Under the pieces are notes generated by a model, which was not told where the DNA came from, made no database searches, and saw only the letters and a list, made by a program, of their open reading frames with translations. From NCBI GenBank assembly GCA_964016885.1, contig OZ024750.1, positions 17,918,001-17,982,000 of the forward strand: a stretch of DNA of 64,000 bases, in the 5' to 3' direction. Within the stretch, counting starts at the first letter, position 1; the number at the start of each line of letters is the position of its first letter. The translations under genes were made by a program, and so were the position numbers. Below, one piece after another: positions 31,401-46,400 of the stretch. The DNA is from Eledone cirrhosa (Eukaryota).

Positions 31401-34400
31401 TGCCAATAGTAGAAACAATTATATATAATAGTTCAGAAAGTCCGGTAAAGCAGCACTGCAGATGAAATTAGTAGCTACCAACAGTTTAGTATAGTGGATA
31501 ATGCACTCGTTTGGATTTGGAAAGAATGCGCATTTTATCCAATTTTTTCAACTATTATTTATATTATCATGAATTACTATCGTCGTTTGAGTTGGGATTC
31601 ACGCATTTCAAATTTTCTAAGAAATCAATTACAGTAACTTTTAAGAAGTATAACTTGAATTTACTCTTTTACTCTTTTACTTGTTCCAGCCATTCGGCTG
31701 AGACCACGGTGGGGCACTCCTTGCAACGTTAACTCATCCAAAGATTTTACTTTTTTCAAATTTGTTTTATAGAGAAAACATGCCCCAGGTGCCAAGGGTT
31801 CGGATGAGGAAGCGTCAGTTAGTAAGGAGGTAAATATTTTGACTACACTAATCTATATTGATCTTCCGTTCATGCACATTAATATTACACATCCAATGGC
31901 ACATGCTCGGTTTCTTTCTTTCAAGCCTTCACAGGTCTTCTGCAGTCAAGGCCAATGTCTCTTTGCCATGTAGCATTGCACTTTGGACTCGGGCAATACA
32001 CAGTCTACCCTTCATTCTGAGGAAGTCTCTAAACATCTTCCAGTCTGTTTTTACTCTGGTTACCACATTTTCACACCATTCTCCCTAAAGTTGATTAGGA
32101 CATCTAGGTAGCAAAAAGCTGTTTAGAACTACTAGAGAGCCTCCATTTTTTCCTTATGTAGGAAACATTTTTTTTAGCCCTCTTAGATAGACACTTTCCC
32201 GTACGTCACAAATACACTCCATCTTTAACAGACAAAGAGTAAAACTAGGGTACTCCTGTGCTAAGAATATGAAGGCCCACATCACCAACAGCCCTAATAG
32301 AGGCACCCCACCACGATGCTCATGCCGAAAGCCTGAAGTTTGTCCCCTTCAACAACAATGCAACACACCCGCTGTAGTTTATGAAGCTGTGGTCACATCC
32401 ACCCGACCAAATCAACCATAACAGGTCAAATCCTATGTGGGTATAGTGGAGGGCCGGTTTAAGGAACGCTTCCTGAACCATCAGTCGACCCTTAGGTACC
32501 TGGACAAACGATCATCCAGGAAGCACGCGAACCACGTATGGTCCCTCAAAGACTCAAGTACAGACTACTCCATTCAACGGAAAGCTATCACTAAGTCCAA
32601 GCCATACGCAAGGGGTAATCCGTCGTGTGGACTGTGTATTGAAGAAAGGATGAATATTCTAAGGAGATTACGCAATAGCGATTGCCTAATTCAAGAAATG
32701 AAATCTTCTCACGTTGTCCACACGTCTGGAAACACCTCTTGTATAACAACAAAGCTCTGGATTGAATAACAGCAACATTCTAATATTCTAATCAACTAGA
32801 ACAATTTATTCCGGATATTCTCAGTTATCTCCCTTACATCTTTTGACCGTGGTTTTGTATCGCTTGGGTGAAGTGACCGTTTCTGCGCATGCGCGTTCAT
32901 ACGGTTGTTTCTCTTTTTCCTGTTCCGTATAACCATTACCAGTCCGAGTTGAGGATCCGCATAAGGCGAAACAATTGTTCTCGGTATTGTGAATTAACTG
33001 CTGTGTTACTACTTCTACCAAACTCGTCCCATGGACTGAGTGTTCTACTACGACTGATATTACCTTCCAATGTTCTACCTTTATATCTATATATGTATAT
33101 AAATTTGTTTTATAGAGAAAACTTGCCCCAGGTACCAAGGGTTCGGATGAGGATTCGTCAGTTAGTAAGCAGGTAAATATTTTGACTACACTAATCTATA
33201 TTGATCTTCCGTTCATGCACATTAATATTACACATCCACTGGCACATGCTCGGTTTCTTTCTTTCAAGCCTTCACAGGTCTTCTGCAGTCAAGGCCAATG
33301 TCTCTTTGCCATGTAGCATTGCACTTTGGACTCAGGCAATATACAGTCTACCCTTCATTCTGAGGAAGTTCTCTAAACATCTTCCAGTCTGTTTTTACTC
33401 TGGTTACCACATTTTCACACCATTCTCCCTAAAGTTGATTAGGTCATCTATGTAGCAAAAAGCTGTCTAGAACTTCTAGAGAGCTTCCATTTTTTCCTCA
33501 TGTAGGAACTTTCTTTTTAGCTCCCTTAGTTAGACACTTTCCCGCAGGTCACAGATACAGACAAAGAGTAAAACTAGGGAACTCCTGCGCTAAGAAGATG
33601 AAGGCCCACATCACAAACAGCCCTAATAGAGGCACCCCACCAGGATGCTCTTGCCGAAAGCCTGAAGTTTGTCCCCTTCAACAACAATGCAACACACCCG
33701 CTGTAGTTTCTGAAGCTGTGGTCACATCCACCCGACCAAATCAACCATAGGAGGTCAAATCCTACGTGGGTATAGTGGAGGGCCAGTTTATAGGAACACT
33801 TCCTGAACCACCAGTCGACCTTTAGGTACCCGGTCAAACGATAATCCAGGAAGCACGCGAACCACGTATGGTGCCTCAAAGACTCAAGTACAGACTACTC
33901 CATTCAACGGAAAGCTATCACTAAGTCCAAGCCATACGCAAGGGGTAATCCGTCGTGTGGACTGTGTATTGAAGAAAGGATGAATATTCTAAGGAGATTA
34001 CGCAATAGTGATTGCCTAATTCAAGAAATGAAATCTTCTCACGTTGTCCACACGTCTGGAAACACTTCTTGTATAACTACAAAGCTCTGGATTGAATAAC
34101 AGCAACATTCTAATATTCTAATCAACTAGAACAATTTATTCCGGATATTCTCAGTTATCTCCCTTACATCTCTTGACCGTGGTTTTGTATCGCTTGGGTG
34201 AAGTGACCGTTTCTTCGCATGCGCGTTCATACGGTTGTTTCTCTTTTTCCTGTTCCGTATAACCATTACCAGTCCGAGTTGAGGATCCGCATAAGGCGAA
34301 ACAATTGTTCTCGGTATTGTGAATTAACTGTTGTGTTACTACTTCTACCAAACTCGTCCCATGGACTGAGTGTTCTACTACGACGGATATTACCTTCCAA

Positions 34401-43400: not shown

Positions 43401-46400
43401 AACACCTCTTGCATAACTAGAAAGCTCTGGATTGAATAACAGCAACATTCTAATATTCTAATCAACTAGAACAATTTATTCCGGATATTCTCAGTTATCT
43501 CCCTTACACCTTTTGACCGTGGTTTTGTATCGTTTGGATGAAGTGACCGTTTCTGCGCATGCGCGTTTATACGGTTGGTCTCTTTTTCCTGTTCCGTATA
43601 ACCATTACCAGTCCGAGTTGAGGATCCATATAAGATGAAACAATTGTTCTCAGTATGGTGAATTAACTGTTGTGTTACTACTTCTACCAACTCGTCCCAT
43701 GGACTGAGTGTTCTACTACGACGGATATTACCTTCCAGTGTTCTACCTTTATATCTATATATGTATATAAATTTATTTTATAGAGTAAACTTGCCCCAGG
43801 TACCAAGGGTTCGGATGAGGATTCGTCAGTTAGTAAGGAGGTAAATATTTTGACTACACTAAGCTATATTGATCTTCCGTTCATGCACATTAATATTACA
43901 CATCCACTGGCACATGCTCGGTTTCTTTCTTTCAAGCCTTCACAGGTCTTCTGCAGTCAAGGCCAATGTCTCTTTGCCATGTAGCATTGCACTTTGGACT
44001 CAGGCATTATACAGTCTACTCTTCATTCCGAGGAAGTCTCTAAACATCTTCCAGTCTGTTTTTACTCTGGTTACCACATTTTCACACCATTCTCCCTAAA
44101 GTTGATTAGGTCATCTATGTAGCAAAAAGGTGTCTAGAACTTCTAGAGAGCCTCCACTTTTTCCTCATGTAGGAAAACCTTTTTAGCCCTCTTAGATAGA
44201 CACTTTCCCGTACGTCACAAATACGCTCCATCTTTAACAGACAAAGCGTAAAACTAGGGTACTCTTGCGCTAAGAATATGAATGCCCACATCACCAACAG
44301 CCCTAACAGAGGCACCCCACCAGGCTGCTCTTTCCGAAAGCCTGAAGTTTGTCCCCTTACACAACAATGCAACACACCTGCTGTAGGTTATGAAGCTGTG
44401 GTCACTTCCACCCGACCAAATCAACCATAGGAGGTCAAATCTTACGTGGGTATTGTGGAGGGCCGGTTTAAGGAACACTTCCTGAACCATCAGTCGACCT
44501 TTAGGTACATGGACAAACGATCATCTGCGAAGCTCGCGAGCCACGTATGGTCCCTCAAAGTCTCAAGTACAGACTACTCCATTCAACGGAAAGCTATCAC
44601 TAAGTCCAAGCCATACGCAAGGGGTAATACGTCGTGTGGACTGTGTATTGAAGAAAGGATGAATATTCTAAGGAGATAACGCAATAGCGATTGCCTAAAT
44701 TGAAGAAATGAAATCTTCTCACGTTGTCCACACGTCTGGAAACACCTCTTGCATAACTAGAAAGCTTTGGATTGAATAACAGCAACATTCTAATATTCTA
44801 ATCAACTAGAACTATTTATTCCGGATATTCTCAGTTATCTCCCTTACACCTTTTGACCGTGGTTTTGTATCGTTTGGGTGAAGTGACCGTTTCTGCGCAT
44901 GCGCGTTTATACGGTTGTTTCTCTTTTTCCTGTTCCGTATAACCATTACCAGTCCGAGTTGAGGATCCGCATAAGGTGAAACAATTGTTTTCGGTATGGT
45001 GAATTAACTGTTGTGTAACCACTTCTACCTAACTCGTCCCATGGACTGAGTGTTCTACTACGACGGATATTACCTTCCAATGTTCTACCTTTATATCTAT
45101 ATATGTATATAAATTTGTTTTATAGAGACAACTTGCCCCAGGTGCCAAGGGTTCGGATGAGGAATCGTCAGTTAGTAAGGAGGTAAATATTTTGACTACA
45201 CTAATCTATAATGATCTTCCATTCATGCACATTAATATTACACATCCAATGGCACATGCTCGGTTTCTTTCTTTCAAGCCTTCACAGGTCTTCTGCAGTC
45301 AAGGCCAATGTCTCTTTGCCATGTAGCATTGCACTTTGGACTCAGGCAATATACAGTCTACTCTTCATTCTGAGGAAGTCTCTAAACATCTTCCAGTCTG
45401 TTTTTACTCTGGTTACCACATTTTCACACCATTCTCCCTAAAGTTGATTAGGTCATCTATGTAGCACAAAGGTGTCTAGAACATCTAGAGAGCCTCCGGG
45501 GCAATTAAGGTAATTTATTTTCAGTGTGCTGTTAGGGCTTAGATCTCGTATGCATTTGATACATACAAAATCTACCTCTCCGATTATCTACCTGTAGTTC
45601 CACTACATTTCTTGTGTGTCCATAAATTGCATGGTATGCATCGCATGGAATTTCTGCTCTCTTCTTTTCAATATTTCGAACAAGGCCACGTTCCAGATGA
45701 TATTCCGTTAACTCTCTTTTCTTACTTTAGTCTTCGTTAAATTTATTTTTAGGCCTTTCGATTCTAGGTTTTTCTTCCATTTTCGGAATTTCAACTCTAA
45801 ATCTTTGTCTATCATGATTCTGTCAAGAAGCGAAGTTTCTTTTAAGAAGTGTAAAGTATGCCACAGTTATTGGTAGAAGTAATTAACAAATTAATTGATG
45901 ATATATATATTTATACAGAAGTACTGACAAACATATGAGGGAGTCTAACCAATACCAGTGTTGTTCAATGAAGGAATTAATAAAAATCAATTTATCAGAG
46001 CATAATTAAATTATATTTGGGAAAAGTAAACTAGATAAGAAAAGATTTGCCTACTTACTTTGATGTCCCTAGTTGCTTTACTAGGAATCTACTCGTCGCT
46101 AACTTTGTAAAGGTTATTACATATATATATATATATATGTGTGTGTAATCTTAATACAAAAGATATTTCTATTTCTATAATACTTCACAGCTTGGTGCCC
46201 AAGCTCAACCTGAAGCTCACAAAGATTCTTTATACATGGAAGCCAGCAAGCTAATTCTTCTTCTTCTTCTTCTTCTTCTTCTTCTTCTTCTTCTTCTTCT
46301 TCTTCTTCTTCTTCTTCTTCTTCTTCTTCTTCTTCTTCTTCTTCTTCTTCTTCTTCTTCTTCTTCTTCTTCTTCTTCTTCTTCTTCTTCTTCTTCTTCTT

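Follow-up and report, generated by a model that had tools for sequence, protein, structure and literature searches.

Long target-site duplications (TSDs) have already been published for insertions of retrotransposons without long terminal repeats (non-LTR). Dualen long interspersed nuclear elements (LINEs) gave rise to duplications with a median of 900 bp in mutation-accumulation lines (PMC9977147), and the same paper cites a 126-bp TSD for R9. One TSD of 1228 bp is described for ZfL2-2, for which about 40% of the 5′ junctions contain extra nucleotides (PMC2666801), and small tandem duplications are reported at L1 sites (PMC11702581). For Penelope-like elements (PLEs) with a GIY-YIG endonuclease, the integration chemistry is described as unresolved (PMC8557442). 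The cited papers are represented throughout by excerpts. Here we analyse a 64-kb window of the 3.0-Gb genome of Eledone cirrhosa (G000:C10:17918001-17982000; positions are counted from the window start), which contains an array of candidate 57-nt exons separated from one another by pieces of a PLE. An initial annotation had attributed this array to a PLE insertion that duplicated the exon and was followed by amplification to 11 copies.

We found that the array holds the remains of one PLE insertion, that its outer flanks look ancestral and that its units have recombined with one another. We favour, with a probability of roughly 0.55, a reading in which this is an exon array recombined between units, the single PLE being a passenger; the host gene duplicates exons of this kind in the absence of the element, too.

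Results

Structure of the array

Self-alignment resolved an array of 1.33-1.34-kb units spanning positions 31758-45497, in which 11 host segments (377-388 bp) are interleaved with 10 copies of a single 5′-truncated and decayed PLE fragment. The array and its borders comprise the following features.

31714-31757, forward strand: copy 1 acceptor, upstream portion, with YTRAY at −44 and AGATTTT at −31; absent from copies 2-11
31749-31757, forward strand: 9 nt (ACTTTTTTC) that likely recur as filler after host copies 1-10
31758-32144, forward strand: host segment, copy 1, 387 bp
31773-31829, forward strand: candidate exon of copy 1, 57 nt, phase 0, with AG/GT and open in frame 0
31867-32144, reverse strand: LINE remnant, cut at 32144 in copies 1-10
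32145-32153, forward strand: filler that separates the host segment from the PLE; sequence A[C/T]TTTTTCC in 9/10 units
32154-33079, forward strand: PLE of unit 1, 5′-truncated and decayed, with the end of an open reading frame (ORF) including the GIY-YIG region, then the 3′ untranslated region
33080-33100, forward strand: TA-rich tail, 21 nt, identical in 10/10 units and joined directly to position −15 of the acceptor in the following host copy
33101-45110, forward strand: units 2-10, 1329-1343 bp each, composed of host segment, filler, PLE and tail
45111-45497, forward strand: host segment, copy 11, with exon at 45126-45182
45498-45805, reverse strand: continuation of the LINE remnant, uninterrupted after copy 11
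Host segment starts: 31758, 33101, 34431, 35761, 37091, 38420, 39754, 41084, 42426, 43769 and 45111
Exon starts in units 2-10: 33116, 34446, 35776, 37106, 38435, 39769, 41099, 42441 and 43784

The first host segment recurs as the last one with 96.1% identity, and a PLE piece lies between every pair of copies, as initially annotated. Downstream of the exon, the host segment is intron with a minus-strand LINE remnant, tentatively of RTE type by its motifs. Dispersed copies of this LINE align in a single piece over 45220-45805, that is, across position 45497, where one of them reads GAGCCTCC-CGGGCAATTG. Because these alignments are unbroken, the junction between copy 11 and the right flank is ancestral, and the claim that the remnant continues past copy 11 is borne out. 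On the left side, of 19 paralogous acceptors, 11 have an AGA-T motif between −20 and −31, and one more has a hit at −49. Copy 1 has this motif at −31, whereas neither copy 2 nor copy 11 has it, copies 2-11 being identical there and having the PLE tail instead, so the left junction is likely ancestral as well. Furthermore, sequence of the PLE family was not found in the flanks at 29000-31757 or 45498-47600, in agreement with the earlier claim that no PLE lies outside copies 1 and 11. Collectively, both outer flanks of the array look ancestral and both PLE junctions derived, with the element lying between two direct copies.

The inserted element and its family

The PLE piece of the array is 88-90% identical to dispersed copies (among the 40 of 5062 candidates that were scored), and a 47-nt pattern of the family has 1301 exact matches in the genome. 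An ORF of the family (L042:3747-4175) scored 0.96 to a cluster named “GIY-YIG domain-containing protein” and 0.93 to a cluster with PF01541 in 41% of its members; by these cluster scores the family has a C-terminal GIY-YIG endonuclease region, and a Pfam scan of the family gave no GIY-YIG hit. Motifs resembling those of reverse transcriptase were seen by eye in two dispersed copies (L013 and L015), and no Pfam RVT hit was obtained on the PLE fragments scanned. The family encodes WFSPPF instead of the (W)FNPPF that had been annotated. Inverted PLE pieces are present in 10 of 29 dispersed copies; of 100 copies, 75 have a 5′ microsatellite and 93 end at the same 3′ position followed by a TA run, so that the family displays the PLE traits of 5′ truncation with inverted or tandem pieces and of microsatellite bias. 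A hammerhead-like motif (CTGAAGA...GAAA with a CCGAG/CTCGG stem, near 32945-32985 in unit 1) was seen by eye in each unit; Rfam gave no hammerhead match, and folding was no better than for shuffled sequences.

The 10 PLE pieces of the array form a single clade with a support of 100/100. A nonsense change is fixed in 10/10 units, and a C>T change in the hammerhead-like core is fixed in 10/10 units and present in 0/29 dispersed copies. These results point to one insertion, as proposed initially, whose sequence had already decayed by the time today's units separated. With 5 synonymous and 12 other, the changes common to every unit are much like those of decaying copies; the stem of the array clade is 0.034 long and its tips near 0.03, compared with 0.03-0.07 for dispersed copies. 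A dispersed subfamily as the source of this PLE was considered and rejected: three copies with two of the array alleles share just 4/15, 7/26 and 6/17 of the array-fixed sites, and the only one of the three to extend as far as the 5′ junction shows the sequence usual for the family there. Matches to a second diagnostic pattern of the array PLE are confined to the array units.

A filler at the 5′ junction

The 5′ end of the PLE had been placed at 32145, joined to the host through microhomology at CCTCC. We found that homology to the family begins at about 32154, after a filler of 9-11 nt that separates CCTCC from the element. Dispersed copies (22 of 29 reach the 5′ junction) mostly read CCTCC followed by 23 nt and ATGTAGG, whereas the array reads CCTCC followed by 11 nt and ATGTAGG, so that the CCTCC of the family lies 12 nt further from ATGTAGG. 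If microhomology at CCTCC is assumed together with a single deletion of 12 nt, 5-6 of the 11 nt do not match. Only 2 of the 11 mismatch if the filler is instead compared with the 9 nt that precede copy 1, extended by 2-3 PLE bases (unit 6 is excluded from this comparison). An equally good fit to the filler is found at 0.2-0.4% of window positions and at 1 of 462 paralogous acceptor positions, the former figure being optimistic because the test was picked after the sequence was seen. The genome contains no other instance of the array junction or of the deletion variant, and an 18-nt junction pattern has 6 genome matches, all inside the array. Because these 11 nt match the 9 nt upstream of copy 1 better than the PLE, the duplicated unit was likely 396 bp long (31749-32144), with the PLE 9 nt inside copy 2.

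Recombination between units

In the four-gamete test, 746 of 2080 informative site pairs are incompatible, with a fraction of 0.19 at distances below 100 bp that rises to 0.46, and the last 30 nt of copy 11 carry alleles common to the inner units. Units 2-5 represent a recent expansion (0.1-2.2%). Amplification by unequal crossover together with gene conversion is thus well supported, and the crossover proposed in the initial annotation holds for an array of head-to-tail units that recombine and have expanded recently. Inner units vary less in their host portion than in their PLE portion (1.3% versus 6.3% between units 2 and 7), and diversity is lowest around the tail and the exon. Runs of five other organisms (X4, X6, X7, X9 and X12) yielded just pieces of repeat families, with no contig across the exon among those listed.

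Between copies 1 and 11 we counted 15 differences in 387 sites (3.9%, confidence interval 2.2-6.3%), compared with an expectation of 8-12%, estimated from the tree of array and dispersed copies, if they were as old as the insertion. By this measure they look younger than the insertion. However, the incompatible site pairs and the shared alleles of copy 11 make conversion evident, and the dates of insertion and duplication are accordingly blurred.

Candidate exons, acceptors and the host gene

All 11 candidate exons are 57 nt long, lie between AG and GT and contain no stop in frame 0, which agrees with the initial annotation as an observation. As a sign of use it carries little information, since by chance alone the absence of a stop is expected with 0.66 and the four invariant splice bases with 0.58. 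Neither does the statement that both splice sites were copied hold, as copies 2-11 retain just acceptor positions −15 to −1 and the acceptor upstream of −15 is absent from them. An acceptor position matrix gave 0.8 for copy 1 and −10.0 for copies 2-11, compared with a spread of −20 to +19 for 19 paralogues in a leave-one-out analysis. Judging by its sequence, copy 1, the sole keeper of a full acceptor, would be the copy most likely used. Selection on the exon copies was rejected as evidence, since all 7 variable sites alter the residue and variation in the exon (7/57) equals that in the intron (40/315). Run X5 has no cover on the exon, a result that counts neither for nor against its use.

The host gene has coiled-coil-like candidate exons at 4.5-20 kb, followed by a run of candidate microexons that can be traced for at least 113 kb, counted from the start of the window. 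With copies 2-11 set aside and copy 1 included, there are 33 candidate microexons: 32 are multiples of 3, and 33/33 are open in frame 0 compared with 4/33 in frame 2, counts in which the motif classes were chosen after the exons had been seen and the paralogues are not independent. For a 46-aa exon at 12412-12549, neither word search nor phmmer (1.84 billion representatives) found a homologue. The gene also contains a second array:

57043-59375, forward strand: second exon array of the same gene, without the PLE family, with 57-nt exons at 57134, 58118, 59000 and 59297

This second array is recent, holds four copies and is bounded by TA runs; its exon at 59297 has CAC and not CAG, the AG being lost. 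With further duplications of exons, free of this PLE, at about 89-111 kb from the window start, recent ones among them at about 89-106 kb, exon duplication is frequent in this gene without a PLE, and therefore no PLE is needed for it.

Further features of the same gene include about a dozen 42-45-nt paralogous microexons (L059-L061, G000:C10:18002001-18032000) with duplicated flanks of 85-95% identity, one of which is 44 nt long; a 60-nt paralogous microexon at 46191-46250 with the donor CTAATT, not GTAATT, directly before (TTC)53, which is likely dead or skipped; and an intronic 101-bp tandem repeat at 28513-29027 (5 copies at 98%). Its introns also hold PLE-like remnants of other families at 47609-49030, with a Pfam GIY-YIG hit, and at 61335-62900.

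Search for flanking duplications at other copies of the family

The initial annotation called for a genome scan for PLE fragments within direct repeats of 200-600 bp. Our sample comprises 129 of at least 1301 family copies, namely 29 long copies and the first 100 pattern matches, the latter all on C1 with a median block of 196 bp. A direct repeat abutting both ends was found at 0 of the 29 long dispersed copies, and among the 100 pattern-match copies we found no clear long flanking direct repeat and one ambiguous case. The scan of these 100 loci recovered the array as a positive control along with four candidates. This places the 95% upper bound on long duplications at 2.3-3.6% overall and speaks against a family habit. 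The short-repeat scan was uninformative in 97 of the 100 loci owing to TA runs.

In the ambiguous case (L098:3723-5252, G000:C1:79415622-79423622), a member of the PLE family is enclosed by two direct copies, 133 bp long, of a different short repeat; these copies are 94.7% alike and have flank and private changes in common. Insertion into a TA run between existing copies explains this anatomy equally well. At L145, a 38-bp direct repeat surrounds 163 bp of PLE. Two other loci were rejected: the flanking repeats of L093 are two ordinary copies of a common repeat (90.5%), and those of L101 are 15 nt long and lie 17-25 nt away from the ends. Separately, L117 and L118 have identical junctions 26.6 kb apart and represent a duplication that carried the PLE along.

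Other repeats of the window

In general, the repeats of the window may resemble those of octopuses. Outside these subjects, a 12-bp tandem repeat with 253 copies occupies 105-3144 and has open frames of more than 1000 codons on both strands. Long near-perfect inverted repeats were seen by eye at about 3590-3990 and 15880-16240, and around 14 head-to-tail copies of a 175-bp repeat resembling a short interspersed element start at 63953 and run on into L057 (to about 66460).

Discussion

Origin of the array

If the PLE is a passenger, a 5′-truncated element would have inserted without target duplication between TTTTTTC and AAATTT, 15 nt upstream of the exon, and a separate tandem duplication would have created the 396-bp repeat. 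The duplication may have come before the insertion, in which case the PLE landed 9 nt into copy 2; alternatively, the insertion may have been polymorphic, and a crossover with the empty allele would then have supplied copy 1. Unequal crossover between host repeats would have multiplied the unit, with gene conversion mixing the units. We infer the order of insertion and tandem duplication, and their independence. The low divergence of copies 1 and 11 fits the insertion-first version.

Several observations weigh against this reading. The PLE lies just 9 nt from the duplication junction, a coincidence that we estimate at a few percent if the two events were independent, and the low divergence between copies 1 and 11 does not fit a duplication-first order without conversion, although conversion is evident and dating separates nothing firmly. 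The microhomology model drops to 3 mismatches if two further 1-nt indels are granted. In the family scan, only 25 of the 100 copies are, like the PLE of the array, without a 5′ microsatellite, and for those the upper bound on long duplications is 11%. Finally, extra nucleotides at the 5′ junctions of LINEs are common and often templated (PMC2666801), so that the filler also fits a single event.

Such a single, insertion-coupled event is the alternative that survives best, and we regard it as a tentative one. Target-primed reverse transcription would have started from a nick at 31757/31758, the end of the complementary DNA would have copied 9 nt of the adjacent target, and its joining to a second break 387 bp downstream would have produced a very long TSD, with unequal crossover following. 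Ancestral-looking outer flanks, derived PLE junctions, a tail that directly abuts the host repeat and a single insertion are all expected from it, and Dualen and R9 (PMC9977147) as well as ZfL2-2 (PMC2666801) provide precedents. L098 has a similar anatomy around its 133-bp repeat, and L145 has its repeat of 38 bp. However, the CCTCC microhomology is absent, L098 is also accounted for by insertion into a TA run between two existing copies, the divergence of copies 1 and 11 suggests an age below that of the insertion, and the gene has a high background of PLE-free duplication. With no clear long duplication in 129 copies, a coupled event needs an outcome that is rare in the PLE family, plus templated filler.

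The wider scenario, in which a PLE-made duplication of 387 bp would have seeded the 11-copy array and the PLE tail would complete the acceptors used to splice the extra exons, for a gain of up to 190 residues, appears unlikely. From the original proposal of insertion-driven exon duplication there remain one insertion, ancestral flanks and recombination among units, while the microhomology, the family habit and the reading of splice sites and frame as a sign of use are not supported.

A late deletion is a quite improbable alternative. Here the PLE would have been long fixed before a single exon, the whole unit would have been duplicated and the first PLE would later have been deleted almost precisely. 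This fits the dates best, given a stem of 0.034 with a nonsense change and a decay-like dN/dS before the units diverged, and 3.9% between copies 1 and 11. However, with no flanking repeats to guide it, the deletion would have had to hit each end of the PLE with an error of no more than a base or two, the copy 1 acceptor shows no sign of disturbance, and turnover of the array accounts for the stem equally well.

An assembly artefact is highly improbable, because the units diverge by up to 7% (most by 4-7%) and because contigs of short-read run X1, which may derive from the assembled individual, cover the tail-exon junction at a depth of 28.9 compared with 3.49 for unique flank (8-fold) and also contain the joint from 45497 to the PLE, so that both array junctions are present; the near identity of units 2-4 (0-1.3%) means that the exact copy number could be off. 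An array made through RNA, in which hammerhead-cut exon-PLE monomers would have been reverse transcribed as multimers as for retrozymes, is just as far-fetched, since the hammerhead-like motif seen by eye in each unit has the changed core and no Rfam match, the units coalesce at many depths and recombine, and no dispersed exon-PLE junction was found elsewhere.

Significance and comparison with known systems

If the PLE is a passenger, the locus is an ordinary exon array that carries a transposon along, and it warns that an element between repeats can mimic a long TSD. If the event was coupled, long insertion-coupled duplications would extend from LINEs to GIY-YIG PLEs, and the array would be a natural case of a single insertion seeding the growth of an exon repeat. 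The growth of protein repeats could be studied well in this gene, whose candidate phase-0 microexons number more than 30 and stem from duplications of many different ages. In a literature search that covered few subscription journals and no supplements, we found no paper joining a retrotransposon or Penelope TSD with exon duplication. Because long duplications at non-LTR insertions have already been published, the mechanism would be new solely for PLEs.

Dualen-4b_cRei (PMC9977147) resembles the array in that a non-LTR element sits between direct repeats several hundred bp long. There, such repeats occur at more than half of new insertions and are seen de novo, whereas here the event is old and 0 of 129 family copies have a clear one; moreover, in the array a filler that matches the upstream flank parts the repeat from the element. 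R9 and ZfL2-2 (PMC9977147, PMC2666801) demonstrate that target-primed insertion can yield a long target duplication and can yield 5′ filler; they are LINEs with RLE or APE endonucleases, in contrast to the GIY-YIG PLE studied here, and exon amplification is not described in the excerpts of those papers.

The family is like canonical PLEs with a C-terminal endonuclease (PMC8557442) in being truncated at the 5′ end, in the inversion of 5′ pieces, in its bias towards microsatellites and in its GIY-YIG region; the hammerhead-like motif seen by eye may be a further likeness. Typical PLE tandems join element to element (PMC8557442), whereas in this array host DNA alternates with one element copy, and the insertion is not in a TA run.

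Finally, symmetric exons of disordered proteins also undergo tandem duplication (PMC8373072, PMC3632108), which multiplies phase-0 modules head to tail, as in the array described here. What sets this locus apart from the exon duplications in the excerpts of those papers is that each added copy has a retroelement tail replacing the upstream acceptor region.

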